Of a stretch of DNA of 59,683 nt, positions 15,426 through 58,602 are shown one piece after another; position 1 is the first letter of the stretch; every line of letters starts with the position of its first letter. The stretch is taken from the NCBI GenBank assembly GCA_015233145.1, contig JADFYI010000003.1:105421-165103 (forward strand), written 5' to 3'. The position numbers and the translations under genes are program-made. This DNA is from Candidatus Omnitrophota bacterium. GTDB lineage: Bacteria; Omnitrophota; Gorgyraeia; Zapsychrales; Fredricksoniimonadaceae. A model generated the notes under the pieces. The model was not told the DNA's origin and did no database searches. It was given only the letters and a program-made list of their open reading frames with translations.

Positions 15426-15431
15426 TTAGTT

Positions 15432-17192: not shown

Positions 17193-17199
17193 AGTTTTG

Positions 17200-17324: not shown

Positions 17325-17357
17325 CCGGTTTTGCGTAAGCGAAACCGGTTTTTTTTT
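17325..17357 (+). terminator. Intrinsic terminator inside the leader of the hyd maturation operon (attenuator candidate)
   Basis: CCGGTTT (17325-17331) pairs with AAACCGG (17342-17348), followed by nine T (17349-17357). GGAGG and the ATG at 17367 follow immediately. Confidence 0.7.
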
Positions 17358-17366
17358 GGAGGAAAC

Positions 17367-17615
17367 ATGGACAAACGACTCGGATTTGTTGGCATCATTA
17401 TTGAAAACCGTTTAAAAGTCGCGCCGTTAGTGAACAAGATTCTTTCAGAGTATGGCGAGGAAATTATTGCCCGCGTCGGTGTCCCTTATAAAGAACGGCA
17501 TTGCAGTGTTATTACCTTGACAGTTGATATGACCACCGATGAACTGGGGGGCTTGACTGGAAAACTTGGGGCCATTGAGGGCGTGACCGTGCGTTCAGGC
17601 CTTGCAAAACAATAG
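17367..17615 (+). CDS. TM1266-family iron-only hydrogenase system regulator (ACT/NikR-C-like small protein)
   Basis: MDKRLGFVGIIIENR...ARVGVPYKERHCSVITLTVD pattern and its position directly upstream of hydF/G/E. The ATG at 17367 follows GGAGG; the listed TTG at 17331 lies inside the terminator. Confidence 0.7.
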   Translation: MDKRLGFVGIIIENRLKVAPLVNKILSEYGEEIIARVGVPYKERHCSVITLTVDMTTDELGGLTGKLGAIEGVTVRSGLAKQ

Positions 17616-17623
17616 GATCATTT

Positions 17624-18994: not shown

Positions 18995-19001
18995 TTTTTT
19001 T

Positions 19002-19045
19002 CATGTTGACAGCTTTGTCTGCTTGTCGCAGACGCTGTCAACATG
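19002..19045 (+). other. Intercistronic stem-loop between the lyase gene and hydF
   Basis: CATGTTGACAGC (19002-19013) pairs with GCTGTCAACATG (19034-19045). An inner stem pairs GTCTGC with GCAGAC. No downstream T-run. Confidence 0.7.
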
Positions 19046-19069
19046 ATTTCGTTAGGGAATAGAGTGATT

Positions 19070-37500: not shown

Positions 37501-37946
37501 TTTCTAAGGATAATGAACTTATTTTGGCTGGCGAAAAGGGCCTTAAGATATTTGTGGCTCAAGAGGGGATTTTTAGCCCTATTTATGAGGATATATCGAG
37601 AGGTTACAGGGCTGTGACAATCTCAGAAGATGCTTTGGTTTCTATCAGGCAAAGTAAAGAAGCTGAAGGACAATGGGATTTGAATGTTTCTGCCATTAAG
37701 AAGGTCAAACGCGTTCTTTCTGACCAGTCTGCTGACAATGCCATGAAGGGTGGTATTGACCTTGCCGCGTCGAATCTGGACATGCAAATCAAGCGCGATG
37801 GGAGCGGCGTGCCATTACCCATCAGCCAGCAGAACCTGGACAGCATCCGTATCGACGGCCTTGTGCCTGTGATTCTTGACATTAAACCCGCTGCAAGCAT
37901 CCCTTTATTTAGTGAAACCGCCCCATCGTCTCAGCCAGCGGCGTAA
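34503..37946 (+). CDS. 1147-aa secreted protein: conserved uncharacterised N-domain, central helical region, C-terminal WD40-like/beta-propeller repeats, terminal GGIDL module
   Basis: Signal peptide MFRKLTSVFLILSFVLSCIAPRYSFS. Repeats FSLDGTKVLTVGGD, VVSNDGQRIFILG, ISPDNQRLTMWG, FSPNGQHAFVLG, FSKDNELILAG. C-terminal GGIDLAASNLDMQIKRDGSGVPLP... Confidence 0.75.
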   Translation: MFRKLTSVFLILSFVLSCIAPRYSFSQNITAVGLMTEPGTMVSLTPAFTPAYLKGMVINPNDPFKFDFLVFRGDEALTDAQKQVEYPNLIKYFLAALAVPDTDQWVNLSPYEKDRIIPDNFGLTIMGRDLLAQDYLLKQISSSLTHPDTDLGKKFWDGIYAEAHEKFGTTDIPTDTFNKVWIVPDKAVVYEKGNTVYVLENHLKVMIDKDYLAMKENNADIAVTEENGVADISHKVMREVIIPAIEKEVNEGKNFAPLRQVYSGMLLATWYKRALKESILSRVYADQGKVKGIDQDPARNQEIYTQYVSAFKRGVFNMIKEDVDRFSQEVIPRKYFSGGTKGYDAAQIIKADEALGQKDFAQQKDRLDDVSAEMKNMTPEDVLALDEKGLTEYLQSLKRTDGTPLFTADQVAQVVKGRFSPVEKGGSQDAAMFNDFDRFRAYVKAVDTLKFSITPAGLDEILGRLGKLFSMRKTQFDQLVNAVRQGEGRVEVNKKRDGTFIIDFGLVHANGSIPSDISDVIATAINGARKAVRARPDAAMNVSGFSTFEFFKNAVQKSNVQNSDELTGMGVHEYRFERLMAHIQDLFKDKSAGINQLIEIISQNQFLDAETLQQDFGWKFEELFDAEDFLPGLVILKAAVKQGLLAQFGNTEDPVGRTLEPIYSEREVGIPKFVGSTGGMVFEDALGGLSTLSFNGFIRSVPVPTIVKKAFDDAGLDGEQVLVQLKNAGMIYYRNGDSTALIREARFKSNGWKEKGLPKALRADAEKIWGILGQHLSVDLVVGSSDGKKVLTTGNGWVQVVGLMQDNSNVSLLHDNVASMPVFGAFSLDGTKVLTVGGDNKTVTVYMEKDGVFNKTSEFSAKGIVYSAVVSNDGQRIFILGADGFSALKKEGSSYVTESNISVRDDFHSLAISPDNQRLTMWGGEYLAIWERNADGLLKEKPLADEKTMGLVKSAVFSPNGQHAFVLGERGWAQVMTATPERIIRQTVDNIGDGITSGVFSKDNELILAGEKGLKIFVAQEGIFSPIYEDISRGYRAVTISEDALVSIRQSKEAEGQWDLNVSAIKKVKRVLSDQSADNAMKGGIDLAASNLDMQIKRDGSGVPLPISQQNLDSIRIDGLVPVILDIKPAASIPLFSETAPSSQPAA

Positions 37947-40250: not shown

Positions 40251-41834
40251 ATGCGGAGTGAACGGGTTGTTTATTGTGTTGTCAGCGGTCTTCTGGCCCT
40301 TATCCTTTCTTTCCGGGCTGTGACTTATTTGCCGTATTTTGATCACACAACTTTTCATGGGGCCTCTTTGTGGCTGGATTTTTTTGTTGTGCTTAGTTTT
40401 CATGTGATTCTTTTTCTTTTAGCGTATTTTTATGAATTGTTCTACGGAACATTGAGCATACTTTTCTTTTATATCTTTTTTCTTCTCAGTTTATATTTCC
40501 TCTCATTGATCAATGCATTAGGGATTCATGCTCAAGAGCGTCTTTGGCTCGGGACGTGTGTCATTGGCTTTTTTATTCCCCTGGTTTCTCAAATAAGAAA
40601 GAAATGGGCTTTTAAAATACGCCCTCCTCAATTTTCCTGGGAAGATGGGCTGATTTTTTTATGGGGCATCAATGCGGTTTTCTTATTTTCGCGGCTTAAT
40701 TTTACTCTCCAGCGCGCGATTTATATGGATGAGGGGTCTTTTTGGTTTGTTGCGGCGCGCGATATGCTGACGCACAGTTTGCAATGGGTCCATACAGCAA
40801 GTTATGCCGGGGCAGGGCTGCATCCTTTGGGTGTGCCTTTTTTAGCGGCTTTGCCGGTAAAGTTTTTTGGGTTGCCAGATCCCCGTGCGATTTTTTTCTT
40901 TCCGGTCTCGATCATTCTTTGCCTTTTGATTTTTCTCTATCGCATTAAATCCCAATCCTGGACATTTATTTTCTTTTTATGCGCGCTGAGCGGAGTGTTT
41001 TATAACAGGTCGTGGCTGGCGTATTTTTTATATGGCTTTGTTTATGGCGAGGGGATAAGTGCCATGATTTTTCTGGTGATGACTTATGAGTGGCTGCGCC
41101 TTTTACAAAATAAACTATTGTCAGATGCCGTAACCCTGATTTTTTGTTTGGGTATTGGTCTTATGGCATTAACAAAGTCTCCGCTCGCAAGCATTGTTAT
41201 TCCTTTTTCTATTCTTTTTTTGTGTTCTGTTTTCTATGCACGCAAGGCTGTCAATCCCAGGGCCTCGTTTAAGTTTTTAGTTTTTGCACTATTATTGGCT
41301 TTTTGTCCCATGATTTTGTGGCGAATGACAGTCATGATTTGGCATGTTCCTTTTATAAAGGTTGCTTTTTCTTTCAATGAACTTTTGGGCCGATGCCTTC
41401 ATCCGCATCTGTGGATGTTCAAAAATATGCTGGGCCTTATGTGGGAGAATTCTAATAATCTTTTTTATTATGGGTTTATGGCGATTTTGAGTTATTTATG
41501 TTTTTCCAGAAAAATTCTTTATGGATTTCCGGCGGTCATACTATTTACAGGTGTTTTCTTGTATTATGCTTATTTTTATAATTATGGCACTGATACCGGA
41601 GATTTCGGAAGCGCGTTGCGATATTTTATGCCGGTATGGCTTGTATTTTTTTATTTAGGCGGATTAGGTTTTGAAAATATAATGCGGCGCATAGAACAGG
41701 GGCAGTGGAAGGTTGGCATTAAAATAGCGGTTCAGTCGATTCTTTGTCTTTTTCTTGTTTGGGGGTTGTTTGAAATAAAAACAGCAGAAAAGATATTGAC
41801 TGCCACACACATGTGTGGTATAAAAGCGTTATGA
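40251..41834 (+). CDS. Polytopic membrane protein, probable GT-C-fold glycosyltransferase (ArnT/PMT-like)
   Basis: More than 10 TM helices. First-loop IYMDEGSFWFVAARDM resembles the GT-C Asp-Glu motif. Assignment is tentative. Confidence 0.5.
   Translation: MRSERVVYCVVSGLLALILSFRAVTYLPYFDHTTFHGASLWLDFFVVLSFHVILFLLAYFYELFYGTLSILFFYIFFLLSLYFLSLINALGIHAQERLWLGTCVIGFFIPLVSQIRKKWAFKIRPPQFSWEDGLIFLWGINAVFLFSRLNFTLQRAIYMDEGSFWFVAARDMLTHSLQWVHTASYAGAGLHPLGVPFLAALPVKFFGLPDPRAIFFFPVSIILCLLIFLYRIKSQSWTFIFFLCALSGVFYNRSWLAYFLYGFVYGEGISAMIFLVMTYEWLRLLQNKLLSDAVTLIFCLGIGLMALTKSPLASIVIPFSILFLCSVFYARKAVNPRASFKFLVFALLLAFCPMILWRMTVMIWHVPFIKVAFSFNELLGRCLHPHLWMFKNMLGLMWENSNNLFYYGFMAILSYLCFSRKILYGFPAVILFTGVFLYYAYFYNYGTDTGDFGSALRYFMPVWLVFFYLGGLGFENIMRRIEQGQWKVGIKIAVQSILCLFLVWGLFEIKTAEKILTATHMCGIKAL
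41796..41824 (+). promoter_or_regulatory. lexA promoter with embedded palindrome (candidate LexA operator)
   Basis: TTGACT (41796-41801), 17-nt spacer, TATAAA (41819-41824). The spacer holds the 12-bp perfect palindrome CACACATGTGTG (41806-41817). The lexA ATG lies 6 nt after the -10. Confidence 0.55.
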
Positions 41835-42542: not shown

Positions 42543-43400
42543 ATGGCCAAAGCAACAGACGAAACTTTTAACGGTCTTTCGGGAAAAGAATGGACGCTTC
42601 TCAGCAAAAATGTCTGGGATGATGTCAGTTCTCCCCGTGAAGCGTATCAGATTGAACATGGCTCAACATTTCCCTTGGCCCTTGCCGAGCGGGTTATCAG
42701 GCTTTATTCCAAGGAAGGGGATCTGGTTTTTGACCCCTTTGTGGGGGTGGGTACAACCGTGATTGCCGCGGCCAAGATGGAACGCGACGCGATCGGCATT
42801 GAGCTTCAAAAAAAGTTTTGCGATACAGCCAAGCGAATCCTGGATGAAGAAAAAACTGATCTTTTCGGCCAAAAGCGTTCGCGCCAGGCTGTGGTGTGCG
42901 ATGATTGCCGCAATCTTTTGGAGTATGTTGACCGCGATTCGGTGCAGGTGACATTAACGTCAGCTCCTTATGCCAATTTTTCCCGCCGGGACCGTTCCCG
43001 TGTTTACAAAAGGGCTATCAGCCCTGCGAGCGATGCTAATGCCAAGCCAGGGGCGTTCAGTATTTTTTCAGAAGATTTCGGAAACCTCGGATATGAGGAA
43101 TACACCGAAGAGTTAAAGAAAATCTTTAAAAAAGTTTTTGACGTCACCAAGCCCGGGGGGTATTGTGTATGGGTTGTCAAAGATTACCGTGACACCCAAT
43201 CCGGAATTCCTTATGTTTCCGTGCATTCGGATATTACCAATTTTGGCGTGTCCGCCGGATGGCTTCATCATGATTTGATTATTTGGGACCAGAACGACCA
43301 GAGGCGCTTGATGCTTTTGGGTTTTCCCAATGTGTTTTACAGCAACCAGAACTGCGCGTTCTTAGTCGTATTCAGAAAACCAGAGCGGGTCACCGCTTAG
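42543..43400 (+). CDS. DNA methyltransferase (N4/N6 type), circularly permuted motif order, no adjacent endonuclease
   Basis: HGSTFPLALAERVIRLYSKEGDLVFDPFVGVGTTVIAAAKMERDAIGIE (AdoMet-binding block, normally C-terminal in beta-class enzymes) precedes SVQVTLTSAPY (catalytic S/D-P-P-Y-type block). Confidence 0.8.
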   Translation: MAKATDETFNGLSGKEWTLLSKNVWDDVSSPREAYQIEHGSTFPLALAERVIRLYSKEGDLVFDPFVGVGTTVIAAAKMERDAIGIELQKKFCDTAKRILDEEKTDLFGQKRSRQAVVCDDCRNLLEYVDRDSVQVTLTSAPYANFSRRDRSRVYKRAISPASDANAKPGAFSIFSEDFGNLGYEEYTEELKKIFKKVFDVTKPGGYCVWVVKDYRDTQSGIPYVSVHSDITNFGVSAGWLHHDLIIWDQNDQRRLMLLGFPNVFYSNQNCAFLVVFRKPERVTA

Positions 43401-44596: not shown

Positions 44597-46594
44597 ATGA
44601 AAAAATTATTGAATTTGGTTTTGAGTTTAAGTGTGTTGTTGGTGTGTGCCGCTCAAGCGGACACGCTTGACTTGGGGCAGATTGTGGTGACGCCGTATCG
44701 CTATGGCGAAGCAATGGAAAGGGCGGCATCTGATGTGACTGTAGTCACTGCCAGCGATATTAAAAGGTCGAATGCCGGCAATGTGATTGATGTTTTAAGG
44801 GCAGTCCCTGGACTTATGGTCAGGGATTATTATGGCAATGGCACCAGGGCCACCGTTGATATGGCAGGCTTTGGCGAGCAGGCGCCGTTGAATGTGCTGG
44901 TGTTGGTGGATGGCCGGCGCGTGAATGAAATTGATTTAAGCGGTGTGGATTGGAGCCAAATCCCGTTGGACCGCGTTGAGAGGATTGAGGTGATCCAGGG
45001 CGGGTCTGGCGCGGCTTTGTACGGGGACAATGCCTCAAGCGGGGTTGTTAATATTATTACAAAAACAGGGGCAGGCAAGCCGCAGGTCAATCTGGAAACG
45101 CAATATGGAAGTTATGATACCAATTCTCAAAAAATTCATTTAAATGGCGGGGTTGATAAACTTTCGTATTGGTTGAGTGAAGGGCGGGAATTCAGTAACG
45201 GTTATCGCAATAACGGTTTTAACAAGGCCAATGATTTTTCCTCCAAGATCGGCTATGACTTTACCGAGGCATTATCCATGCATTTTGACTCAGGATTCCA
45301 CTCCTCGACATTTGGAATGCCGGGCGCTCTTTTCCAAAGCAATATTGATGCCAATGGCCCGCGGTATGCCAGGTTTAGCTTTGATCATGCGAATGAAAAA
45401 GATTATTACTTTGTCTGGGGCACAAAGGCCAGGGTCTTGGATTCCGGAGACTTTGATATTGATCTTTCTTATCGCAAAAAGGATTCTGATACCTACTCAA
45501 CGACGCTGGATACGCGAATAAATCACATTGAAACGGTCGGCGTCACCCCTAAGTATACGATTAAAGAAAGCGTGTTGGGGCATGATAACAAGCTGGTTAC
45601 GGGCTTTGATTTTTATCGGGTTTTATATGTTTCTGATAATTATGACCGGATAAATAAGAGCCTCACCAGTTATACCAATATCAATAAAATTTCCATGGCC
45701 GGGTACCTGCAAGATGAGTTTTCAATCTTTAAGGAGCTTGTTTTTGTGAATGGTTACCGCTATGAAAAGGCCCGCTATGCTTTTAATTATCATGATTATG
45801 TGTGGGGAAACCCTGACCAGGATACAAAAATAGCCCCTGATATGCAGGCGTTTAACAGCGGACTGGTTTATAACTATAAAGAGGACTCCAGCCTTTTTGT
45901 TAACGTGAGTAAAAGTTTTCGTTTTCCTGCGGCGGATGAATTCGGGTATTTTGATGATATGGGTGCGGCCCAGCTTAATACGGGTTTAAAGCCGCAGTCA
46001 GCCATCAATTATGAAACAGGCGTCCGCCACAAGTTTTCTGAAAGGTTAAAAGCGGATTTGTCATTGTTCAGAATGAATGTTAACGATGAACTTTATGCGG
46101 ATTATACGGCTGGAGCCGGCGGGTTCCCTCAGAATGAAAATTATGACAAGACCGTTCACCAGGGACTGCGGTCTTCTTTAGAAGCCAAGTTAAACGACTG
46201 GGTAACCTCGTTTGGCAGTTATACGTATACCGACGCTTATTTTGATGGCGGAGAGCATGGCAAAAATGAAATCCCCATGGCGCCGCGGCATAAGGGGAGT
46301 GTGGGCTTAAGGCTTCTTTTAACCAGAAATACAACGCTTAATATCACAGATACTTATGTGGGCAATAGCTATGCCCTTAATGATCAGGCCAATGCCCATT
46401 CGCGAGTGAATGGCTACATGGTTGCAGATGCCAATTTATCCTGGCGGCACAAGGATTTCAAGGTCACAGGAAGCATTAATAACATTTTTGACAAGCAATA
46501 TTCCGAGGTCGTGGGGTTTGACCGGACACGCGACAGGTTTTATTATCCAAGCCCTGGGCGGAATTACGCCTTAAAGATGAGTTGCTCGTTTTAG
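44597..46594 (+). CDS. btuB: TonB-dependent outer-membrane receptor, probable cobalamin/corrinoid receptor
   Basis: Signal peptide, TonB-box-like DTLDLGQIVVTP, plug domain (RAVPGLMVRDYYGNG, VLVDGRRVN) and terminal aromatic ...MSCSF. Located directly downstream of the B12 riboswitch. Confidence 0.85.
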   Translation: MKKLLNLVLSLSVLLVCAAQADTLDLGQIVVTPYRYGEAMERAASDVTVVTASDIKRSNAGNVIDVLRAVPGLMVRDYYGNGTRATVDMAGFGEQAPLNVLVLVDGRRVNEIDLSGVDWSQIPLDRVERIEVIQGGSGAALYGDNASSGVVNIITKTGAGKPQVNLETQYGSYDTNSQKIHLNGGVDKLSYWLSEGREFSNGYRNNGFNKANDFSSKIGYDFTEALSMHFDSGFHSSTFGMPGALFQSNIDANGPRYARFSFDHANEKDYYFVWGTKARVLDSGDFDIDLSYRKKDSDTYSTTLDTRINHIETVGVTPKYTIKESVLGHDNKLVTGFDFYRVLYVSDNYDRINKSLTSYTNINKISMAGYLQDEFSIFKELVFVNGYRYEKARYAFNYHDYVWGNPDQDTKIAPDMQAFNSGLVYNYKEDSSLFVNVSKSFRFPAADEFGYFDDMGAAQLNTGLKPQSAINYETGVRHKFSERLKADLSLFRMNVNDELYADYTAGAGGFPQNENYDKTVHQGLRSSLEAKLNDWVTSFGSYTYTDAYFDGGEHGKNEIPMAPRHKGSVGLRLLLTRNTTLNITDTYVGNSYALNDQANAHSRVNGYMVADANLSWRHKDFKVTGSINNIFDKQYSEVVGFDRTRDRFYYPSPGRNYALKMSCSF

Positions 46595-46751: not shown

Positions 46752-49700
46752 TTAGAGAAGGATTGGCCCAAGCCAGCGTTTGGCTTCGTCCAGAGAAAGC
46801 CCCTTGCGTTTGGCATAGTCTAAAAGCTGGTCATTGGCAATATGCCCGATGGAAAAATAATGGGATTTGGGGCACGCAAAATAATGGCCGCAGACAGAGG
46901 CCGCAGGCATCATCATGAGGGATTCTGTCAGGGTTATGCCGGTTACTTCGCTGGCATTCAAGATGTTGAAAAGTTGAAGTTTTTCCGTGTGGTCCGGGCA
47001 GGCGGGGTAGCCTGGCGCCGGGCGGATGCCGCGGTAATGCCCGGCAAAAATATCGTCATTGGAAAGCTTTTCATCTGGAGCATATCCCCAGTATTCCCGG
47101 CGCACAGTTTCATGCAGCACTTCTGCAAAACCCTCGGCCAGGCGGTCCGCAAGCGTTTTTAAGAGGGTGATTTTATAATCGTCTCCTTTAAAATATTTTT
47201 CTGCATTTTCCATCCCTGTTCCGCCGGTTACGGCAAAGGCGCCTAAGTAACTTTTAGCGCCGGTTTCTTTGGGGGCAATAAAGTCTGACAGGCTGTAGTA
47301 AGGCTCATCGTCTGTTTTTAAAATCTGCTGGCGGAGCATGTAAAAAGTGGTGAGGATTTTTTTACGCGAGTCATCGGTGTAAACCTCAATGTCATCCCCA
47401 ACACTGTTAGCAGGAAAGAATCCCACAACACCATGACAGGAAAGAAGCCTTTTGATAGTAATGTCATCGAGCATGGCGTTGGCATCGTTAAAAATTTTAA
47501 CAGCCTCAGGGCCAAATTTAGGGTCTTTAAGGATTGCCGGGTAACGGCCTTTTAAGCCCCAGGCCAGAAAAAGAAACGACCAGTCAATCCGTTCACGGAT
47601 GCGGCGGATATCAAAATCCTTAAGCGCCTTGGTTCCCAGAAAAGAGGGTTTTTGAATAGCCGCTTTGCTCCAGTCGAAAGAGGGCTTTAACCGGCGCGCC
47701 TCGGAAAGCGGGATGAGCCTGGTGGCAGCCTTGTTGGCCTCAAAATTCTTACGGATTTCTTCCTGTTTAGCCCGGTTAGCGGACACAAAGGCATCGCGTG
47801 TTTTTGGGTTGAGCAAATCCCGGCAAATGCCGACTCCCCGCGAGGCATCTTTGACATGCACAACCGCGCCGCTGTAGGCCGGGGCGATTTTTACGGCCGT
47901 GTGGTTTTCAGAGGTAGTGGCACCTCCTAGAATAAGAGGAATAGTAAAGCCTTCGTTTTTCATGTCTGAGGCGACCTTGACCATTTCGTCCAGAGACGGC
48001 GTAATGAGGCCCGAGAGGGCCACAATATCCACCTTAAGTTCACGGGCTTTTTTTAAGATCACTTCTGACGGTGTCATGACACCGAGATCAATGATTTCAA
48101 AATTGTTGCAGGCTAAAACAACACCTGTAATATTTTTTCCGATATCATGAACATCACCTTTGACCGTTGCCATAAGAATCCGGCCCGCGGTTTTGGCAGC
48201 GCCAGATTTTTCTTTTTCAATCAGGGGCTGGAGAATGGCCACGGCTTTTTTCATGACGCGGGCGCTTTTGACCACTTGAGGCAAAAACATTTTTCCGGCG
48301 CCAAAAAGGTCTCCCACAATGTGCATGCCATCCATTAAAGGGCCTTCAATGATAGTGAGCGGGCGGGGGTATGTTTTTAAAGCCTCTTCAATATCAATGT
48401 CAATGAAATCCGTGATGCCTTTGACAAGCGCATGAGCCAGGCGTTTTTCAATGGGCCCAGAGCGCCACGCCTGATCTTCAACAATCGCCTTATCTTTGCC
48501 TTTGAGTGTTCCTGCAAAAGAGAGAAGCCTTTCGGTTGCGTCACTTCGACGATTTAAAATGACATCCTCAACCATTTCGAGGAAATCTTTAGGGATTTCA
48601 TCATAAACCGCGATCATTCCGGCGTTCACAATACCCATGTCCATGCCAGCCTTGATCGCGTGATAAAGAAAAACAGAGTGCATGGCTTCACGAACCTGGT
48701 CATTGCCGCGGAAAGAGAAAGACACGTTGCTCACGCCGCCTGATATGCGGCAGTGGGGAAGCTTTTCTTTTATTTCGCGCGTGGCATTAATAAAGTCCAG
48801 GGCATAATTATTGTGCGCATCAATCCCCGTGGCCACGGCAAAAATGTTGGGGTCAAAAATAATATCCTCGGCAGGAAATCCAATATCCCGGGTAAGGATT
48901 TTATAAGCACGCTGGCAAATTTCAACCTTACGGGTTTGAGTGTCAGCCTGTCCTTGTTCATCAAAGGCCATAACAACTACAGCCGCGCCGTATTTTCTGA
49001 TTTTACGGGCCTGGGCTTTAAAATTGTCTTCGCCTTCCTTGAGGCTGATGGAGTTCACGATTGATTTGCCCTGCACGCATTTTAACCCGGCCTCAATAAC
49101 ATCCCATTTGGAAGAATCAATCATGACAGGGACGCGCGCAATGTCTGGTTCCGACGCAATCAGATTTAAAAATTTGACCATGGCTGCCTTGGAATCAAGC
49201 ATGGCCTCATCCATGTTAATGTCAATGGCCTGGGCGCCGGCGTCAACCTGCTGGCGGGCCACGGAAAGGGCCTCATCGTAATGGCCGTCAATAATGAGTT
49301 TTGCAAATTTCTTAGAGCCTGTGACATTGGTGCGTTCGCCGATGTTTACAAAATTTATGCCTTCCCGCAACGTCAAAGGCTCAAGCCCGCTGTAGGATGA
49401 GCAAGGTTCAAAAGAGGGCACTTTGCGCGGCAGGATTTCTTTAACTGCCTCGGCAATCGCGCGGATGTGGTCGGGAGTTGTGCCGCAGCACCCGCCAAGG
49501 ATATTGACAAGCCCGCTTTGGGCAAATTCTTTAACAAAGGTGGTCATTTCTTCGGGGGTTTGGTCATATTGGCCAAATTGGTTCGGCAGCCCTGCGTTAG
49601 GATAAGCGCTGACAAAAGTATTGGCCAGGCGCGCAAGGTCGAGAATATGCGGCCGCATGTCTTTGGCGCCCAGCGCACAGTTAAATCCGACAGCCAGAGG

Positions 49701-50420
49701 TTGGGCATGTTTCACGGAAATCCAGAAAGCCTCTGCGGTCTGGCCTGAAAGGGTGCGGCCAGAGGCGTCGGTAATTGTGCCGGAAATGATGATAGGAATG
49801 GGATGCTTTGCCGACTCATTATAGGAAAGTGCGGCATAAATTGCGGCCTTGGCGTTCAGGGTGTCGAAAATTGTTTCGATCAAAAGAACGTCAACGTTTC
49901 CCTCGCCAAGGCCCGTTATTTGTTCGCCATAGGCTTCGACCAATTTATCAAAATTGATCGCACGGTAAGAGGGGTCGTTCACGTCAGGAGAAATGGACGC
50001 TGTTCTGTTGGTGGGGCCGATAGAGCCAGCCACAAAACGCGGCTTTAATGGATTTTTTTTTGTAAATTCGTCGCAAGCCGCACGCGCGAGTTTGGCAGAG
50101 GCGAGGTTCAGCTCATACACCAAAGACTCCATGTGGTAATCCACCATGCTGATGCGATTCGCGTTAAAGGTATTGGTTTCAATGATATCTGCGCCAGCAT
50201 CAAGGTAAAGCTTATGGATATTGGCAATAATGTCCGGTCGGGTGAGGGATAAAAGGTCATTATTTCCTTTTAGGTCATGGCTCCAGTCTTTAAAGCGTTC
50301 GCCCCGGTAATCTTTTTCCGTAAGGTTGCGGCGCTGAACCATGGTGCCCATGGCGCCATCCAAAATAAGGATGCGTTCTTTAAGGAGCTTTTCGATAGGT
50401 GAAGGAGTATTCTTATTCAT
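46752..50420 (-). CDS. metH: Cobalamin-dependent methionine synthase
   Basis: Hcy-binding ([17 protein letters not shown]), pterin-binding, B12-binding DVHDIGKN (DxHxxG) and a C-terminal AdoMet reactivation domain. 1222 aa. Confidence 0.95.
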
Positions 50421-51708: not shown

Positions 51709-52956
51709 ATGATTGATAAAAATCGTTACCGGACGATTGTTTTTATTTTACTGGGTATTCTGGTGTTTTTTGTTTACGGGTATCATTTTTACCTTCCGAG
51801 GGAACCCTACTTTGATGAGATTCTTTATGTGAACTTCATGCGAAGCTTGGGAGCCGGGGAGTACAGCATAACGCTTTCCGCTCATCCACCGTTGTGGAAT
51901 TTTTTAATGGCTGGATGTGTTCGTGTTTTTGGCGATTATTCCTGGTCATGGCGGCTGGTATCGCTTTTGGCAGGAGTTGGGGTTTTGATTGTTTTATATT
52001 TTTTGGTCAAACAAATTACGCAAGATGTAACCACGTCTTTGCTGGCTGTCTTTTTTATGCTTTTTGACTGCCTTTCCTTGACGCAAGCCCGTGCGGCCAT
52101 GATGAATGCTTTTCTTTTGTTGTGGATGCTTTTATCCATGTTGTTTTTCTTTTATGCTTTGGAGGGAAAAGCCTCTTTTAACCGAAAATACCTTTTATTA
52201 TCTGGAATATTTTTAGGCCTGGCCTTGGCCACCAAAATACTGGTGTTCAATATGGTTTTCTTTTTCGGGCCTTTTGTCCTCATTTATGCCTGGCAGAGAA
52301 AGGCCGAGCGCGGTAAGTTTCTCATGTGGAGCGCGGTATGTTTTATCCTGATTCCGGTGGTCATGTTTTTCTGTGTTTATGTGCCGGTCATGTTCTTTAA
52401 GGATCATCAAGCAGTCGATATATGGGCGATTCCATTGTTTCATCTGCAATACCACTTTTCAACAAAGCAAACACATCCGTATGTTTCTGACTGGTGGACG
52501 TGGCCGGCCATGGCGCGTCCGGTCTGGATGTATTTTCAGACAGCCTATTACGGCACTCCTGGCGCAACGGTTGAGGGGATTGTTTGCATAGGCAATCCTG
52601 CTCTGTTCTGGATGATGCCGGTTGCCATAGGGTATATGTTGTGGGAAGGCTTAAAAAACAAGTCGCGCGTGGCTGGTATCATTTTGGCAGGGTTTGCATC
52701 GCAATGGCTTTGTTATATTTTTGTCAGCCGCATGAAGTTTCTTCATTATATGTATCCTGTGATGCCTTTTTTAGCCATGGCCTTTGCGGTGATGGGTGTG
52801 AAACTATGGAATAAAGGCAAAATTGGCCGTGCGGTGGTCATATATTATCTGGTCCTGACCGCAGGGATGTTTGTTTTCTGGTATCCGCTTCTGACAGGGC
52901 TGCCAGTGAGCGCCAGCTTTTACAGCCATCATATCTGGTTCCGGTCATGGGTTTAA
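51709..52956 (+). CDS. GT39-family (PMT-like) phospholipid-carrier-dependent protein O-mannosyltransferase homologue
   Basis: First-loop PYFDEILYVNF (DE motif), many TM helices, and C-terminal PMT_4TMC-like HPYVSDWWTWPAMARPVWMYF. Confidence 0.75.
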   Translation: MIDKNRYRTIVFILLGILVFFVYGYHFYLPREPYFDEILYVNFMRSLGAGEYSITLSAHPPLWNFLMAGCVRVFGDYSWSWRLVSLLAGVGVLIVLYFLVKQITQDVTTSLLAVFFMLFDCLSLTQARAAMMNAFLLLWMLLSMLFFFYALEGKASFNRKYLLLSGIFLGLALATKILVFNMVFFFGPFVLIYAWQRKAERGKFLMWSAVCFILIPVVMFFCVYVPVMFFKDHQAVDIWAIPLFHLQYHFSTKQTHPYVSDWWTWPAMARPVWMYFQTAYYGTPGATVEGIVCIGNPALFWMMPVAIGYMLWEGLKNKSRVAGIILAGFASQWLCYIFVSRMKFLHYMYPVMPFLAMAFAVMGVKLWNKGKIGRAVVIYYLVLTAGMFVFWYPLLTGLPVSASFYSHHIWFRSWV

Positions 52957-52999: not shown

Positions 53000-53027
53000 T
53001 TGACAGGCCTTCTTTATATGTTATATT
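53000..53027 (+). promoter_or_regulatory. Sigma70-type promoter of the sedolisin-like gene
   Basis: TTGACA (53000-53005), 16-nt spacer, TATATT (53022-53027). The leader contains the palindrome AATATTAAC/GTTAATATT (53043-53064). Confidence 0.5.
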
Positions 53028-53158
53028 TTTGTTATATAGGGTAATATTAACAAAAGTTAATATTGCAAAGATCTGGTTCAAGCACAGGCTTAACCAAGAT
53101 GTGGTTTTTTTGACAATCGCCAGAGATGTTTGGCTTTATTATTAAGGAGTGCAAGACA

Positions 53159-56100
53159 ATGAAAAAGATTAAAAAACCATGTCTTAGATTTCTTAAAAGC
53201 GTTGTCGTAGTTGTTTCCAGTCTTGCCCTTATCGCCCAATCTTTGCTTTTTGCCTCACCCTCTTATGCCCAAACTTCTCCCAGAATTTTAACAGGACTGG
53301 TCCCTGCATGGGTTCAGAAAAATTTTCCCGCTTACAAGACTGCCAATAATCCAGCCTCGGATAGCATGGTTATTGACACCAGGGTTGTTTTGCCTTTAGC
53401 TCCGGATGCGCAAACCAAACTCAATGCCTTGCTTTTAAGCTTATATAGTCCTGAAGATGTTAATTTTGAATCTTTTATCACTCCTGCTGTATTTAATCAG
53501 TCATACCGGGCTTCGGATGCCGATATTGCGGCTGTAAAAAGTTTTCTTACGGGTTATGGCCTTAGTGTAACAGCACAGTCTCTTAACGGGACAGTATTAT
53601 CAGTGCGCGGTCCGGTTTCGGCTTATAATAAAGCATTTTTTGGCGGCGCTTCAGCCATACAAATGTTTCCAGGATGGGGGACTGCCCAACACTATGCGCC
53701 TAATCGCAATGCCACAGTGCCATCAGGAGTTAATATCCTGGAGGTCGCTGGCCTGGATGATTGCCCAAGGTATAATCCACATGCTCTTCCTGGTCCGCAA
53801 ATCGTATCTCCTGCAATAGGTCATGCCCCGAACGGGGCTTTAGCGCCCGCAGATGTCAAGGCAGCGTATAATTTCCAGTCATTTCCCGCTCCAACTTCGA
53901 CAACAGAAGTCACTCCGCCGCTCATTACACAGCAGCCAACGGATGTAACGGTTATAACTCCGGCATCGGCAACTTTTACAGTGGCAGCCGCAGGCTCACC
54001 TGCGCCGGCATATCAATGGATGAAAATGCCAAACGGCAGCACGGCTTATGCACCTGTTCTCGGGGCAATAAGCGCAACTTATTCCATAGGAGCGACAACA
54101 GTTGCTGACAGCGGAACGTATCAATGCGTGATTACAAATGATGCCGGCAGCGTCACCAGTAATCCGGTAAAATTAACAGTGAGCCCTGTAACGGCAACCC
54201 TTACGATTGTAAAAGCGCCGTCTTCTCAGTCCGTTATGGCAGGGGACGCGGCGACTTTTTCAGTATTAGCCAGCGGACCTGCTCCAATAACATATCAATG
54301 GATGGTCAAACCACCTGCTGGCACTATGAGCAATATTCCTGGAGCCACGGGCCCTGCCTATACCACTGGTTCGACAACTCTTGATATGGCCAGAACAGTT
54401 TATTATTGTCTTGTGGGAGGCTCTATTTATGTCTCGGCCCCCTTATTGGTGAGGCCAGCGGTAGCTCCGACTATCACAGTTCAACCAAAAAGCCAAACAG
54501 TGACGCCATTGAGCCCTGTAACCATGACTGTAGCGGCCACAGGTTTTCCTGCGCCAAAATATCAGTGGGTGAAAAAGCCTATAGGCGCTGGCCTTATTAA
54601 TGGCATTAGTGCCGACTATTTGCCCATTCCCGGAGCCACAGGCTCCACATTTACTCTTAATACAACAACACTGGTGCAAAGCGGCGCATACGCTGTTACT
54701 GTTACCAATTCTGCCGGGAGCGTGACCAGCAGTCCGGCGACAGTCACAGTTACCTCTGCGATTCCGAGCTATGCAGGGAAAACTAATATTGCCCTTTTGG
54801 AGTTTGATGGGTATCAGTCTGCGGATATCGCAACCTTTGAAAAAGAATTTGCGCTTTCGCATGTGCCTTTGATTAATGTTCCTGTTAACCGGTTTATTCC
54901 GCCCCTTGATTATACTGTTACAGGAGGAGCCAGCCAGGCAACACTTGATGTTGAGTCTCTGGAAGCCTATGCGCTTGGGACAAAAGCGATTTATGTTTAT
55001 CAGGCGAGCAATACCGCCAATGGCCTGATAGATGCCTTGGGGCAAATGGTTAATGCCGCAACAGCCGCCGGAAAGCCGCAGAATAATGTTATCAGCCTTA
55101 CCTGGGGCGCTCCTGAGCACCAGACCGTCACAGCCAATTTTTATAATCAGATGGCCCAGCAGGCCGCGGCCCAGGGGATAAGTGTTCTGGCTGCTTCAGG
55201 GGATAATGGTGCTTATGATGACCCGTTAAACCCTCAAATAGCATCCGTGGATTTACCTGCCAGTTTGCCTTATGTCACGGCGGTTGGAAGCACAAGTCTT
55301 GCAGCCAAAAATGGAACATATGCTGAATCAGCCTCAATGCTGGGCGGCGGCGGTGTAAGCCGGCTTTGGCCTATTCCATTTTATCAGGTTCCCATTGTTA
55401 CCCCCGGCGCAGCAAGGACTGCAAAACTGTCACCAAGCTATCGTAATCTGCCGGATACAGCCCTTAATGCAGATCAATCAACCCCATATGCATTTCGTAT
55501 TAATGGAGCTTGGGGGGGGTATTCTGGTACAGCCATAGCAACGAATATTGTGGCATCGTTGGTGGGGCTCGTGGACCAGGGGCTCAGTCAATTAACCAGA
55601 GATACGATACCTTCCATAGGGCTTATTAACCCTATGTTTTATAATTTTGCGCAGGATCCTGTAAATTATCCTGGAAATTTCAAGGATGTTATTTCTGGCA
55701 GTAACGGTTATTTTACAGCCGTGAAAGGTTTTGACGCTGTCACGGGATTTGGATCCGTTGATTTTTTTAAAGGATATCTGAATCTTGTGAAAAGTGCGTT
55801 ATTTATAAAATTTGAGACCAATGGTTTTCTTGTTGGAAACTGCGCGGTGAATATCGCTGATCCCGCAAATCCGTGTCCGATTGGTCAAGATCAATACAAC
55901 CTTTCTGGCACAAGGTATTTCGCCTGTTGCGCTAATCCTCCTCAGGGGAAAACGGTTTTTGCTCAACCTGCAACGATAATCGCCCTGAAACAAAAAGTAG
56001 CCAGTCCCATGTTTGCAGCATGGGCAGGACCAAGCGGAGAAGATGTGCTTGGTGGTGCAATAATAGGTATAGCATTTGTTATTATAGTTTTTTCCATATT

Positions 56101-57070
56101 CGGCTCAGTTGCGCCAATTGTTATTGCTGCCGTTGTTATTGGCGCTGCGATAGGCGGAGCGGTTAAATATGCGACAGGAGATGATCATTTAAATCCTCCG
56201 AAGCCAACTCCGACCCCAACGCCAACTCCGACGCCAACACCAACGCCGACACCGACACCAACGCCAACGCCGTGTCCTTCTGCCCAGCCGACAAGGTGCA
56301 ACGGGACGTGCACCAATACCAGCACAGATGCCAGTAACTGTGGTGGTTGTGGGAACGTATGCTCAGCTACGGGACAAACATGTCAGAGCGGGAGCTGTAA
56401 GTGTCCTGGTACGCAGGTCGTTTGTGCAGGGGCTTGCACGGACACACAGACAAGCAATAGTAACTGCGGCGGCTGCGGGATTACATGTTCAGGCGGAGAA
56501 AGCTGCCAGAGCGGAGCTTGCAAGTGCCCCAATGGTGGCAAAGTGGGAGACAACAATAATTGCGGTGCCTGCGGGACTCAATGCACAAATGGAGAAACCT
56601 GCCAGAGCGGCGCGTGCAAGTGTCCTAGCGGTTACCTAGGAGACAACGATAATTGCGGTACCTGCGGGCATGCATGTACTGCTCCAGATTCATGCGTAAA
56701 TGGGCAATGTGTTTGTCAGCCTCGGACATGCTCTTTTTATAATGCCGATTATCATGCCAATGACAATGCCTGTGGAGTTTTTGATGACGGGTGTGGCAAG
56801 ACAATTGATTGTACAACATGCGCCGCTCCTAAGGTTTGTTCGGGGCCTCCTCTTACTATCCCGCCTCCTCCGATGTGGCAGGGAGTTTGCCAGGACCCCT
56901 GTTGCACTCAGACAAGTGCCGTGACGATTACATTAGGGGGGCAGCCATCAAGCGTCTTGGCTGTTCAAAAAACACCGACAGTAATAGCCAATGTTGTGGG
57001 GTGTATTTGCACAACGCCAACAGCATCGACAATAACGTTTTATAAATATTTAACAGGCTCTAACAAATAA
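53159..57070 (+). CDS. Sedolisin (peptidase S53)-like surface protein, predicted catalytically inactive. Order: pro-kumamolisin prodomain, 4 inserted Ig-like repeats, S53 core, hydrophobic hairpin, (PT)11 linker, 4 Cys-rich modules
   Basis: The ATG at 53159 lies 9 nt after AAGGAG. S53 motifs LAPADVKAAYNF, IALLEFDGY, VLAASGDNGAYD and DVISGSNGYFTAVKGFDAVTGFGSVDF. Triad positions read QATLD (expected ExxLD) and SGTAIAT (expected GTS). Ig repeats end in YQCVITNDAGSVTSNPVKLTV-type strands. Confidence 0.8.
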   Translation: MKKIKKPCLRFLKSVVVVVSSLALIAQSLLFASPSYAQTSPRILTGLVPAWVQKNFPAYKTANNPASDSMVIDTRVVLPLAPDAQTKLNALLLSLYSPEDVNFESFITPAVFNQSYRASDADIAAVKSFLTGYGLSVTAQSLNGTVLSVRGPVSAYNKAFFGGASAIQMFPGWGTAQHYAPNRNATVPSGVNILEVAGLDDCPRYNPHALPGPQIVSPAIGHAPNGALAPADVKAAYNFQSFPAPTSTTEVTPPLITQQPTDVTVITPASATFTVAAAGSPAPAYQWMKMPNGSTAYAPVLGAISATYSIGATTVADSGTYQCVITNDAGSVTSNPVKLTVSPVTATLTIVKAPSSQSVMAGDAATFSVLASGPAPITYQWMVKPPAGTMSNIPGATGPAYTTGSTTLDMARTVYYCLVGGSIYVSAPLLVRPAVAPTITVQPKSQTVTPLSPVTMTVAATGFPAPKYQWVKKPIGAGLINGISADYLPIPGATGSTFTLNTTTLVQSGAYAVTVTNSAGSVTSSPATVTVTSAIPSYAGKTNIALLEFDGYQSADIATFEKEFALSHVPLINVPVNRFIPPLDYTVTGGASQATLDVESLEAYALGTKAIYVYQASNTANGLIDALGQMVNAATAAGKPQNNVISLTWGAPEHQTVTANFYNQMAQQAAAQGISVLAASGDNGAYDDPLNPQIASVDLPASLPYVTAVGSTSLAAKNGTYAESASMLGGGGVSRLWPIPFYQVPIVTPGAARTAKLSPSYRNLPDTALNADQSTPYAFRINGAWGGYSGTAIATNIVASLVGLVDQGLSQLTRDTIPSIGLINPMFYNFAQDPVNYPGNFKDVISGSNGYFTAVKGFDAVTGFGSVDFFKGYLNLVKSALFIKFETNGFLVGNCAVNIADPANPCPIGQDQYNLSGTRYFACCANPPQGKTVFAQPATIIALKQKVASPMFAAWAGPSGEDVLGGAIIGIAFVIIVFSIFGSVAPIVIAAVVIGAAIGGAVKYATGDDHLNPPKPTPTPTPTPTPTPTPTPTPTPTPCPSAQPTRCNGTCTNTSTDASNCGGCGNVCSATGQTCQSGSCKCPGTQVVCAGACTDTQTSNSNCGGCGITCSGGESCQSGACKCPNGGKVGDNNNCGACGTQCTNGETCQSGACKCPSGYLGDNDNCGTCGHACTAPDSCVNGQCVCQPRTCSFYNADYHANDNACGVFDDGCGKTIDCTTCAAPKVCSGPPLTIPPPPMWQGVCQDPCCTQTSAVTITLGGQPSSVLAVQKTPTVIANVVGCICTTPTASTITFYKYLTGSNK
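56204..56272 (+). repeat. (Pro-Thr)11-Pro coding microsatellite-like linker
   Basis: CCA ACT CCG ACC ... encodes PTPTPTPTPTPTPTPTPTPTPTP. Confidence 0.9.
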
Positions 57071-57139: not shown

Positions 57140-57231
57140 GGCCGTGCTTAAGTCCATTCCTGTTGCCATGCCAAGACAACAATGGGGCTTAAGGTGTTAA
57201 CCAATATCAAGCCTTGGAAGGATGCGTTGTT

Positions 57232-58602
57232 ATGAAAAAAGATAATATTAAAGGCGCATTTGGTTTGCATCGGATTTTCTTGATATTGGCAGGTGCGTTA
57301 GTTGTTGTGCTTTGCTTGGGGATTGTTTCTTACGCAGATCCCGTAACAGTAAAAACAGCAAAGCCTCCGGCGTTGGCCACAACAGCAACGTCCATACCGG
57401 TAGCAATATCAACGCAAACACCGGTAACAATATCAACTTTCACCCCGATAACAACATTAATGCCTGTCGTGAATGTTCCCGTCAGGTTGACTCAACCGTT
57501 AAATAATACTGTTTATCCGGCTGGGGCCAATATGTTTTTTGAGGCCAAGGTGTTAAATCCCATGACGGTTCGGGTTGATTTTTATAACGGCACAACATTA
57601 TTAAAAACAGTGCCCTGGAAGCCTTACACCTATACGTGGAAGAATGTGGCTCCTGGCAGCTACCACATAACAGCTGTGGCTACAGATTTCAGGGGTGTGA
57701 AAAACACCTCTGCTGCAGTGAATGTGACAGTAGGGCCTTCACCGGTAGCGGGATTAACAGCCTTTGCCGTTAATCCTTCTGCCACAGCCCCGTTAAATTT
57801 TATTCTGGCGGCGTGGGCGACATCGGCCAAAGGCCCCATCACTCAAATTGCTTTTTACAATGGTTCAACATTATTAGAAACTGTGACTGCCGCGGATTCA
57901 AAGGTTGACTCGTGGTATAGTGAGGCGACTGCCACCTGGAGTAGTGTTGCCTTGGGTTCTTTGTTGAATGTGCCTGCCGGCAGTTATAACTTAAGCGCTA
58001 TAGCCACAGACAGCACAGGGGCTATGTCCACAGCTTACTATGCGGTAAGTAATACAGTTGTTGCTGCCACTAACGCAAGCTTTATAATTTTTGCCCAGAT
58101 CCCTATTGACGGCCCTGCAAAATTTTGTACCAGACCAGAATTAGCTGACAGGGAAGAATGTATTTTTTCCACTTGGTTAAGAATTCGCTACTGGCTGGGG
58201 GATATATTCGACCCTGTCGAAGATCCGCCACCCCCAGTGTTGTGCCCTGAATTACCGGCAACGCCTGGTAATGTTTCAGCAATCTACAATCCCGCTACAG
58301 GAACATGTAACGTGACCTGGAACAATTCCCAAGATGGTGTGGTTTATTCTGCTTCTTGCTATGTTCCGGGAAGTGATTCGCAAGGTCATCCTAAAATACC
58401 ACCTGACACATCTGGTGAGACCAAAACGCCACCGCCACCAGTAACATCAGGTTGCGATGTTATACCTCACCCAGGTAATATGGAATCACTAGAGGGAGCT
58501 AAGTGTGTAGTTTATGCAAAAAATCCGAGTGGAGGAGACGCTTGTTTCAGTTGGTCTCAAACAGTAACGTGTGTAGATCCAAGGCATCCGATCGCTCAAT
58601 AA
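57232..58602 (+). CDS. Membrane-anchored protein with Thr/Pro-rich linker, two or more bacterial Ig-like domains and a Cys-containing C-terminal domain
   Basis: The ATG at 57232 gives MKKDNIKGAFGLHRIFLILAGALVVVLCLG (signal anchor). Repeats VDFYNGTTLLKTV...GSYHITAVATDFRGV and IAFYNGSTLLETV...GSYNLSAIATDSTGA. Confidence 0.7.
   Translation: MKKDNIKGAFGLHRIFLILAGALVVVLCLGIVSYADPVTVKTAKPPALATTATSIPVAISTQTPVTISTFTPITTLMPVVNVPVRLTQPLNNTVYPAGANMFFEAKVLNPMTVRVDFYNGTTLLKTVPWKPYTYTWKNVAPGSYHITAVATDFRGVKNTSAAVNVTVGPSPVAGLTAFAVNPSATAPLNFILAAWATSAKGPITQIAFYNGSTLLETVTAADSKVDSWYSEATATWSSVALGSLLNVPAGSYNLSAIATDSTGAMSTAYYAVSNTVVAATNASFIIFAQIPIDGPAKFCTRPELADREECIFSTWLRIRYWLGDIFDPVEDPPPPVLCPELPATPGNVSAIYNPATGTCNVTWNNSQDGVVYSASCYVPGSDSQGHPKIPPDTSGETKTPPPPVTSGCDVIPHPGNMESLEGAKCVVYAKNPSGGDACFSWSQTVTCVDPRHPIAQ

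Follow-up and report, generated by a model that had tools for sequence, protein, structure and literature searches.

A sedolisin-family protein with substituted catalytic residues and an Ig insertion in its catalytic domain, a probable pseudoprotease of Candidatus Omnitrophota

Identification of the gene product as a member of family S53

The question raised by a long open reading frame (ORF) of a Candidatus Omnitrophota bacterium (GenBank:GCA_015233145.1, contig JADFYI010000003.1, positions 105,421 to 165,103) is whether a protein built on the fold of the S53 peptidases (sedolisins) is still a peptidase and, if not, what it may do. The whole stretch analysed, 59,683 nt in length, is referred to as the window, and nucleotide (nt) and amino acid (aa) positions are counted from its first letter. 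The gene, located at 53159-57070, is real, and the alignments described below indicate that its product, termed pseudo-sedolisin, has most likely kept the sedolisin fold and lost catalysis. A first-pass annotation, made by reading the sequence, had proposed such a dead scaffold, and the domain order it gave held apart from the number of immunoglobulin (Ig) repeats: signal peptide, prodomain, S53 core interrupted by Ig repeats, hydrophobic anchor, Pro-Thr (PT) linker and Cys modules. The features on which the family assignment rests are as follows.

53159-57070, + strand: coding sequence of pseudo-sedolisin, a single ORF (1303 aa plus stop)
53345-53740, + strand: Pro-kumamolisin activation prodomain, aa 63-194 (Pfam PF09286, E 9.4e-13, 49.1 bits against a cut-off of 23.5)
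54788-55789, + strand: S53 (sedolisin) catalytic-fold core, aa 544-877 (phmmer, Foldseek and AlphaFold)

Membership in S53 by homology is solid, based on the Pfam prodomain, the phmmer matches of the core and the Foldseek template modelling (TM) scores of the modelled fold. In phmmer, the core matched kumamolisin with E values of 4e-25 to 1e-27 (kumamolisin-As, ~1e-27) and human TPP1 with an E value of 5e-14. AlphaFold model 1 (aa 38-965), built on 55 relatives, was used for the prodomain and the core only, for which the block-mean values of the predicted local distance difference test (pLDDT) were mostly 89-98 (77-78 in two blocks) and mostly 80-96, respectively; the Ig arm and the N-terminal helix were of poor confidence, the Ig region had no alignment depth, and in the input alignment MAFFT had put the helix motif of the relatives against residues after the Ig insert. 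The top Foldseek match of this model was pro-kumamolisin 1t1e (target TM 0.82), and the target TM was 0.83-0.84 for kumamolisin-As, 0.72-0.75 for TPP1 and 0.73 for Pseudomonas sedolisin. The S53 assignment of the first-pass annotation is therefore confirmed (PF09286 prodomain, kumamolisin E value of 1e-27, target TM of 0.82-0.84), and the Pfam/HMMER domain calls and the comparison of the AlphaFold model upheld the fold.

Catalytic residues

The signature motifs of S53 are ExxxD and GxSxxxP (PMC7804941), in place of which pseudo-sedolisin has QATLD and GTAIATN. The core was aligned with 122 S53 relatives by MAFFT, the column of the general base Glu78 being scored in 119 of them, and the following positions were located.

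54935-54937 (CAG), + strand: Q593, at the position of the general base Glu78 (E in 119/119 relatives)
54947-54949 (GAT), + strand: D597, retained equivalent of Asp82 (MAFFT alignment)
55100-55102 (ACC), + strand: T648, in place of the invariant Ser of the SWG motif beside Trp129 (S in 122/122)
55202-55204 (GAT), + strand: D682, retained equivalent of the oxyanion-hole Asp164 (MAFFT alignment)
55532-55534 (GCC), + strand: A792, at the position of the nucleophile Ser278 (S in 122/122 relatives)
55544-55546 (AAT), + strand: N796, in place of the Pro of GxSxxxP (P in 122/122 relatives)
55685-55756, + strand: retained Ca-site motifs DVISGSNG...GFDAVTGFGS (D843, G847, N849, D859, G863 and G865, invariant in relatives)

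Both triad substitutions that had been read by eye, including their codons, were thus found exactly where they had been placed, and so were the retained oxyanion Asp and the Ca-site motifs. Among the residues that define an active S53 peptidase, the general-base Glu and the nucleophile Ser were absent, whereas the triad Asp and the oxyanion Asp were present. Over the 150 nearest cluster representatives described in the next section, E occupied the Glu78 column in 143 of the 146 with an aligned residue. Also kept were E548 (equivalent to Glu32), W649 (equivalent to Trp129) and the GGGVS motif; the invariant Trp position of the nucleophile helix was lost (W798V), and S789, three residues upstream of A792, stands for a Gly that is conserved in 117 of the 122 relatives. 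The Ca-site is retained as sequence motifs (DxxxGxN ... GxDxxTGxG), the metal site itself being putative. The columns are fixed by mutant chains in the PDB, in which the H of E78H (1siu) falls opposite Q593, the N of D164N (1zvj) opposite D682 and the A of S278A (1t1e) opposite A792; the title of entry 1t1e is that of an intact precursor.

Retention of D597, D682, E548 and W649, together with a Ser in place of the conserved Gly at position 789, might suggest a peptidase that is still active through non-canonical residues, by using either Ser789 or an Asp-centred mechanism with D597 and D682. We consider this extremely improbable, because the nucleophile, the general base, the invariant Pro, the Trp position of the nucleophile helix and the SWG Ser have all been lost, and because the S278A precursor titled as intact carries Ala at the column of A792. 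This single substitution reportedly suffices to stop the processing of kumamolisin (1t1e). Furthermore, restoring the triad in CspC and CspA, two pseudoproteases of the subtilase fold, still gave no activity (PMC7200643).

Rarity of the loss and constraint on the fold

To see how rare the loss of catalytic residues is, an exhaustive HMMER search was run against 1.84 billion cluster representatives, giving 7368 relatives, of which the closest was 48% identical to pseudo-sedolisin, and a nine-position catalytic pattern was scored in the top 150. The pattern EEDSWD[T/S]SP was present in 124 of the 150, and most of the others varied only at the second-shell Glu32 or were fragments. Pseudo-sedolisin reads EQDTWDTAN at these positions; core catalytic residues were missing in only two others, P0246 (EQDNWNSST) and P0351 (EKDSWDTGP). 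At the 42 columns conserved in at least 95%, pseudo-sedolisin departs seven times, one of which (Y533) is an artefact of the split alignment, and five of the six real departures (E593Q, S648T, Q674I, S792A, P796N and W798V) fall in catalytic motifs; the relatives had a median of 0 departures, and only P0246 was worse, with 9. Since 35 of the 42 near-invariant columns were kept at ~45% overall identity, which is far from uniform decay (binomial P ~1e-7), the fold appears to be still constrained and the catalytic machinery not.

No orthologue of pseudo-sedolisin was found in the exact-protein index, the GTDB genomes, the JGI metagenomes or the 1.84 billion representatives, nor in a word-indexed protein search, the best match of which was 42%. 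A full-length protein search was dominated by Ig-repeat proteins and was useful only for spotting the relatives P0043 and P0072.

The two other dead proteins differ in their surroundings. P0246, labelled 'kumamolisin' and located on a 2.3-kb JGI contig, is a member of a clade of intact multidomain sedolisins; it has Q for Glu78, N for the SWG Ser, N for the oxyanion Asp164 and T for the motif Pro, with the nucleophile Ser kept. In P0351 (L083 5001-7493), Glu78 is changed to Lys and Ser278 to Gly, and the protein continues with a linker rich in Pro, Ser and Thr and, at the C-terminus, three large Cys-rich repeats, being a convergent case of a dead sedolisin plus a Cys-rich tail. On 50-kb contigs, it adjoins an intact S53 paralogue (L083 7664-9397), and RING-finger, HNH and ankyrin genes nearby give what looks like a giant-virus or eukaryote context. 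Dead sedolisins thus recur, labelled 'kumamolisin' in databases and unremarked. In the literature, no paper was found that pairs 'sedolisin' with 'pseudoprotease', and none of the Omnitrophota papers found mentions S53. The earlier statement that pseudo-sedolisins with this architecture are undescribed therefore stands in part: no paper pairs the two terms and the architecture occurs in 0 of the 150 nearest representatives, but P0246 and P0351, two further S53 proteins in which catalysis was independently lost, are among those 150.

The pairing of P0351 with an intact paralogue brings up another role, namely that pseudo-sedolisin does not have a structural or adhesive role but acts on active sedolisin paralogues as a regulatory partner, decoy or inhibitor; in a parallel case, the active CspB is under the control of CspC and CspA (PMC7200643). 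We hold this role to be distinctly unlikely here, as a second S53 gene was absent from the 59.7-kb window, a negative that concerns the window and not the whole genome.

Ig insertion in the catalytic domain

Upstream of the core, the catalytic domain is interrupted by a 281-residue insert (aa 253-534, nt 53915-54760), as shown by the following features.

53840-53875, + strand: LAPADVKAAYNF, N-terminal helix of the mature catalytic domain, aa 228-239 (matches LAPNDVKTAYNL in the relative P0241)
53915-54190, + strand: Ig (Ig_3/I-set-like) repeat 1, aa 253-344 (92 aa)
54191-54463, + strand: Ig repeat 2, aa 345-435, the most divergent (91 aa)
54464-54760, + strand: Ig repeat 3, aa 436-534 (99 aa)

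The three repeats fill the whole insert and are 41-48% identical to one another; over aa 253-531, Pfam gave 93.1 bits for Ig_3 (cut-off 30) and 72.1 bits for I-set (cut-off 23.7), in addition to a match to Ig_2. The first-pass annotation had placed the insert correctly, at 53915-54758 and between the YN motif and the first core strand, but its count of four repeats has to be reduced to three (92, 91 and 99 aa in the alignment). An hmmsearch with the family profile split the protein into aa 63-241 (profile 34-204) and aa 518-877 (profile 185-538), and in the relatives a helix of the LAPNDVKTAYNL type lies ~12 residues before the β1 strand VALFELDGY. The adjacent profile positions and the match of LAPADVKAAYNF indicate that the Ig array replaces the short loop from the helix to β1 (IALLEFDGY in pseudo-sedolisin), and the insertion is thus truly intradomain. 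At the helix-β1 site, insertions of at least 40 aa were absent from all of the 150 nearest representatives; P0072 has an FN3 domain inserted elsewhere, in the linker that joins prodomain and mature domain.

Expression signals and integrity of the gene

The reading frame is open on the + strand from 53126 or 53159 through 57070, and it is preceded by the following signals.

53000-53027, + strand: promoter-like site, TTGACA/16-nt spacer/TATATT with an extended -10 TG (11/12 consensus matches)
53144-53149, + strand: Shine-Dalgarno sequence AAGGAG, 9 nt ahead of ATG 53159 (read directly from the sequence)
53159-53269, + strand: Sec signal peptide, aa 1-37 (sequence and hydropathy peak at aa 7-17)

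The ATG at 53159 is the likelier start, because it has AAGGAG at 9 nt and begins a canonical signal peptide, which consists of MKKIKK (with KKIKK as the n-region), a hydrophobic core and SYA followed by QT; cleavage would probably occur between SYA and QT. The promoter-like site is a pattern match only and sits in the gap downstream of a gene for a protein O-mannosyltransferase (PMT)-like product, which is described below.

The sequence comes from an assembly of an uncultured organism with no second copy for comparison, and the changes of E to Q and S to A each take a single nucleotide (GAG to CAG, TCC to GCC). These facts would fit an artefact, such as a sequencing or consensus error or a chimeric assembly, or a recently inactivated and decaying pseudogene without function. 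Such an origin is very improbable for several reasons: six invariant positions are changed and five of them cluster in catalytic motifs, the 3.9-kb frame is open and equipped with a Shine-Dalgarno sequence and a signal peptide, and the fold-defining positions are kept far above the neutral expectation. Moreover, both junctions of the Ig insert are in frame, no DNA repeats of at least 18 nt were found at these junctions or between the Ig units, and the GC content is even across the insert, which argues against chimeric assembly; repeat-mediated misassembly was rejected in view of the repeat-free junctions.

C-terminal half and membrane topology

The ~430 residues after the S53 core comprise the following features.

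55790-56044, + strand: orphan post-core segment with four Cys, aa 878-962 (85 aa; pLDDT <50)
56045-56164, + strand: uncharged hydrophobic run of 40 residues, aa 963-1002, with a central GSVAP (Kyte-Doolittle up to 2.8)
56204-56269, + strand: (PT)11 linker, aa 1016-1037 (mixed codons)
56273-56716, + strand: four tandem Stig1-like (MXAN_6577-like) Cys modules, aa 1039-1186 (PF04885, NF041328 and homologues)
56717-57067, + strand: divergent fifth Cys segment (aa 1187-1229) and orphan Thr/Val-rich tail (aa 1230-1303), without family match and of low pLDDT

The post-core segment had no Pfam match at E values up to 10 and no homologues; its reading as a degenerate FN3 domain, as in the relatives, was rejected, as it lacked the Pfam match and showed no similarity to the FN3 of P0241. 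The hydrophobic run reads VLGGAIIGIAFVIIVFSIFG-SVAP-IVIAAVVIGAAIGGAV, one residue longer than the 39 counted previously, and both of its halves carry small-xxx-small Gly motifs. The mixed codons of (PT)11 show that it is not a fresh microsatellite. The linker and the four Cys modules had been recognised before and were confirmed by sequence reading and Pfam, Stig1 scoring 31 bits (cut-off 24.1) and NCBIfam NF041328 65.8 bits (cut-off 100). The modules, each containing NCGxCG, share 38-51% identity with modules arranged in tandem in secreted proteins from Myxococcota and other organisms, and 40 of the 47 Cys of the mature protein lie after the PT linker. In AlphaFold model 2 (aa 868-1303), the four modules form small β-hairpin units with pLDDT of 80-97, and values below 50 were obtained for the hydrophobic run, the post-core segment and the tail. 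Foldseek with this model found no significant match in the PDB, the best being integrin β EGF repeats (E 0.6).

It is plausible that the hydrophobic run is a helical hairpin that anchors the protein in the membrane and leaves both halves outside. The hairpin is favoured because the homologous Cys modules sit in proteins with signal or lipoprotein leaders, and because PT linkers and the PMT-like neighbour both belong to the outer face of the membrane. According to model-helix work of the von Heijne laboratory, a hydrophobic run of ~40 residues with a central Pro-containing turn is said to be the classic requirement for a hairpin, and the 40 uncharged residues found here fit it. The alternative is a single-pass anchor, which would place the S53-Ig half in the periplasm and leave the PT linker and Cys modules in the cytoplasm, where they might, for example, bind metals. 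This is suggested by the single helix drawn by AlphaFold (aa 963-980), by the Lys right after the hydrophobic stretch and by the source being a strict anaerobe, since metal binding by cytoplasmic Cys clusters is frequent in such organisms; we nevertheless judge it unlikely, given the secretion or lipoprotein leaders of proteins with homologous modules, the outer-face location implied by the linker and the PMT neighbour, and the modelling of the Cys modules as disulfide-type β-hairpin knots.

Evolutionary position

The architecture of pseudo-sedolisin was compared with that of the nearest clade, P0241-P0248, which consists of multidomain sedolisins of 1000-2200 aa with the order prodomain, S53 core, FN3 and Big_7 and/or Ig_3; P0121, from a Candidatus Omnitrophota metagenome-assembled genome (MAG), resembles them. 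Members of the clade are 57-80% identical to one another and 40-47% identical to pseudo-sedolisin, which lies on a long branch of the tree, as expected if its state is derived. P0246 is nested inside this intact clade and its loss of Glu78 and Asp164 is therefore independent; a shared origin of the dead state with P0246 was rejected from the tree and the identities. Pseudo-sedolisin and these proteins (P0241-P0248 and P0121) share 40-48% core identity and the same type of Ig_3 repeat. They differ in that the relatives have their own catalytic residues intact, except P0246, and carry FN3, Big_7 and Ig after the core, whereas pseudo-sedolisin has Ig inside the core and is alone in possessing the hydrophobic anchor, the PT linker and the Stig1 modules. 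With P0241, the identity is 46% both between the Ig repeats of pseudo-sedolisin and the C-terminal Ig_3 array and between the two cores. Related domains are also encoded next to pseudo-sedolisin.

57214-58602, + strand: downstream neighbour, a secreted protein with two Big_7 Ig domains (Big_7 37% identical to the Big_7 array of P0241)

By these Ig and Big_7 likenesses, the two-gene locus holds the domain set of one P0241-type protein in rearranged form. We infer that pseudo-sedolisin may have descended from a P0241-type ancestor by domain shuffling, followed by loss of catalysis, and the downstream gene may be the split-off remainder of the ancestral multidomain sedolisin. The downstream product has 462 aa, with a Thr/Pro-rich N-terminal stretch and a Cys-containing C-terminal region of ~190 aa without family match. 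P0241 itself (S53, FN3, four Big_7 and five Ig_3), the closest intact relative, is encoded at L081 6001-10542 on a 336-kb contig, directly upstream of a type IV secretion cluster with VirB3, VirB4, TrbL, VirB8 and CagX (L081 10652-16542).

Neighbouring genes and host

The upstream neighbour of pseudo-sedolisin was identified as follows.

51709-52956, + strand: PMT/GT39-like protein O-mannosyltransferase (Pfam PMT, PMT_2 and PMT_4TMC)

It scored 68.8 with the NCBIfam equivalog, against a cut-off of 800. The position of a PMT-like gene immediately upstream of a gene for a (PT)11-linker protein is unusual outside Actinobacteria, and the enzyme may O-mannosylate the PT linker. A 527-aa polytopic membrane protein without family match, encoded at 40251-41834 and similar in composition to GT-C-type glycosyltransferases, may represent a second enzyme of envelope glycosylation encoded close to the PMT-like gene. 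Another product, of 1147 aa (34503-37946), has an N-terminal signal-like segment and SxDG/SPxGQ-type β-propeller-like repeats in its C-terminal third, and had no Pfam or NCBIfam match. An active S53 paralogue and other Stig1 or PT-linker proteins were searched for in the 59.7-kb window, and none was found.

A hydrogenase cluster at 13452-21807 comprises a NuoF-like subunit, the [FeFe]-hydrogenase HydA, a lyase, HydF and a radical-SAM/BATS maturase, and the anaerobic ribonucleotide reductase NrdD is encoded at 24445-26574. The source organism is thus a strict anaerobe, as evidenced by the [FeFe]-hydrogenase cluster and NrdD. An N6/N4 DNA methylase (42543-43400) and a TonB-dependent receptor (44597-46594) were also noted, the latter implying an outer membrane and a periplasm. 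The full-length cobalamin-dependent methionine synthase MetH (46752-50420) is 75% identical to those of Omnitrophota MAGs, the best among 583 relatives.

Proposed function

Taken together, pseudo-sedolisin probably arose from multidomain secreted S53 proteases and serves as a membrane-tethered, non-enzymatic envelope scaffold or binding protein. It would be exported by Sec, and the retained prodomain would chaperone the folding of the S53 core. With Ala as the nucleophile and Gln as the general base, auto-cleavage of the prodomain would not occur, and the protein would stay covalently intact as a 'locked zymogen' with the prodomain and linker in the cleft, like S278A pro-kumamolisin. The 40-residue segment with its Gly-Ser-Val-Ala-Pro turn would tether it to the cytoplasmic membrane, most likely as a hairpin with both halves directed outward. 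Outside, the S53 core may form a rigid hub bearing the three-Ig arm before strand β1, the (PT)11 stalk, possibly O-mannosylated by the adjacent PMT-like transferase, and the four disulfide-rich Stig1-like modules, and these outward parts together would act as the non-enzymatic envelope scaffold or as a ligand-binding (adhesin-like) protein.

According to published proposals, most Omnitrophota are ultra-small, live as predators or parasites and depend on large adhesin-like proteins (PMC10066038; bioRxiv 10.1101/2023.11.21.568195), which makes a role in attachment attractive. A bolder proposal would then be that pseudo-sedolisin is the first functional pseudoenzyme of the sedolisin family, a zymogen-locked hub of a glycosylated, tethered binding protein used by an ultra-small, probably host-dependent cell; we put this forward tentatively and regard it as rather doubtful. 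It is equally doubtful whether, in such a cell, the protein serves to hold a partner or prey or to organise the envelope, with the Ig arm and the Stig1-like modules binding the ligand.

Several points weigh against the scaffold and binding role. The adhesin reading is weakened by the fact that, in a diderm, a protein tethered to the cytoplasmic membrane would be exposed to the periplasm and not at the cell surface, barring further export; attachment is thus the weakest step of the proposal. The Q and A are those of a single protein, the collections searched having yielded no orthologue to bear on their conservation or on purifying selection (ratio of nonsynonymous to synonymous substitutions, dN/dS). 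The promoter-like site at 53000-53027 separates the PMT-like gene from that of pseudo-sedolisin, and the pairing with PMT was not seen beside the relatives. As for the anchor, the AlphaFold model has just one helix there, and positive charge is almost absent from the residues flanking the hydrophobic run, so that charge does not decide between a hairpin and a single span. Since the Ig arm, the hydrophobic run, the post-core segment and the tail were not resolved by AlphaFold, the hairpin and the geometry of the insert rest on sequence logic.

Significance

How stable catalytic folds come to serve binding and regulation can be seen in pseudoenzymes, and the cases studied in clan SB (CspA, CspC and, functionally, PCSK9) all belong to S8, so that a sedolisin example would extend this theme to S53. 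As a natural equivalent of the S278A precursor, pseudo-sedolisin could be used for studying prodomain locking, and a helix-β1 loop that tolerates a graft of 281 residues would be useful to protein engineers who work with the kumamolisin scaffold. In the Omnitrophota, studies have concentrated on giant ORFs of difficult interpretation, and pseudo-sedolisin offers a tractable candidate envelope or attachment protein of 1303 aa. Annotation pipelines would label the gene 'S53 family peptidase' or 'kumamolisin', as for P0246 and P0351, and would thereby inflate the predicted proteolytic capacity. The observation holds up and would mildly surprise a specialist in proteases; no long-standing question is opened by it, and what it says of function is inferential.

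Comparison with known systems

With kumamolisin (MEROPS S53; 1t1e, 1gt9 and 1sio), pseudo-sedolisin shares the prodomain and the subtilisin-like core (target TM 0.82-0.84), the equivalents of Asp82, Asp164, Glu32 and Trp129, and the Ca-site motifs, and with its natural Ser-to-Ala state it resembles the engineered S278A precursor, in which processing does not take place. The two differ in the changes of Glu78 to Gln and Ser278 to Ala, in the loss of the GxSxxxP proline, and in the 281-aa array of three Ig repeats before β1 and the long extension after the core of pseudo-sedolisin.

The Cys modules have counterparts in Stig1/MXAN_6577-like proteins (PF04885, NF041328), which share CxxxCxDxxxDxxNCGxCGxxCxxGxxCxxGxCxC with them; these are mostly secreted proteins or lipoproteins of the Myxococcota type, in addition to the Stig1 proteins of plants and fungi, and have no protease domain. 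Large surface-anchored proteins of clan SB include the C5a peptidases ScpA and ScpB, both weak fold matches in Foldseek, and lactocepin (S8), in which a PA domain is inserted and Fn3/Ig-like domains are attached; they differ in being active enzymes, in having the PA domain at another loop and in using a sortase anchor on the Gram-positive wall. Insertion into the catalytic domain is thus known in clan SB for PA, and Ig arrays at this loop of S53 are not known.

CspC and CspA of Clostridioides difficile (clan SB, S8) are pseudoproteases of the subtilase fold with uncleaved prodomains and act as sensors or regulators (PMC7200643). Like pseudo-sedolisin, they combine the fold in a bacterium with the loss of triad residues, and the two changes in CspA, Q for His and A for Ser, are analogous to those found here. 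They differ from it in belonging to S8 instead of S53, in being soluble spore proteins that bind small-molecule germinants and in having none of the Ig insertion, membrane anchor and Cys modules. PCSK9 (S8) has the clan SB fold and functions by binding only; its prodomain covers the cleft permanently, and its C-terminal domain is rich in Cys and His. Unlike pseudo-sedolisin, it keeps the triad, autoprocesses once, and is eukaryotic and soluble. By analogy, pseudo-sedolisin may work most like CspC and CspA and, in its logic, like PCSK9, and it is an unusual variant of a known theme, the clan SB pseudoprotease, and not a new kind of system.

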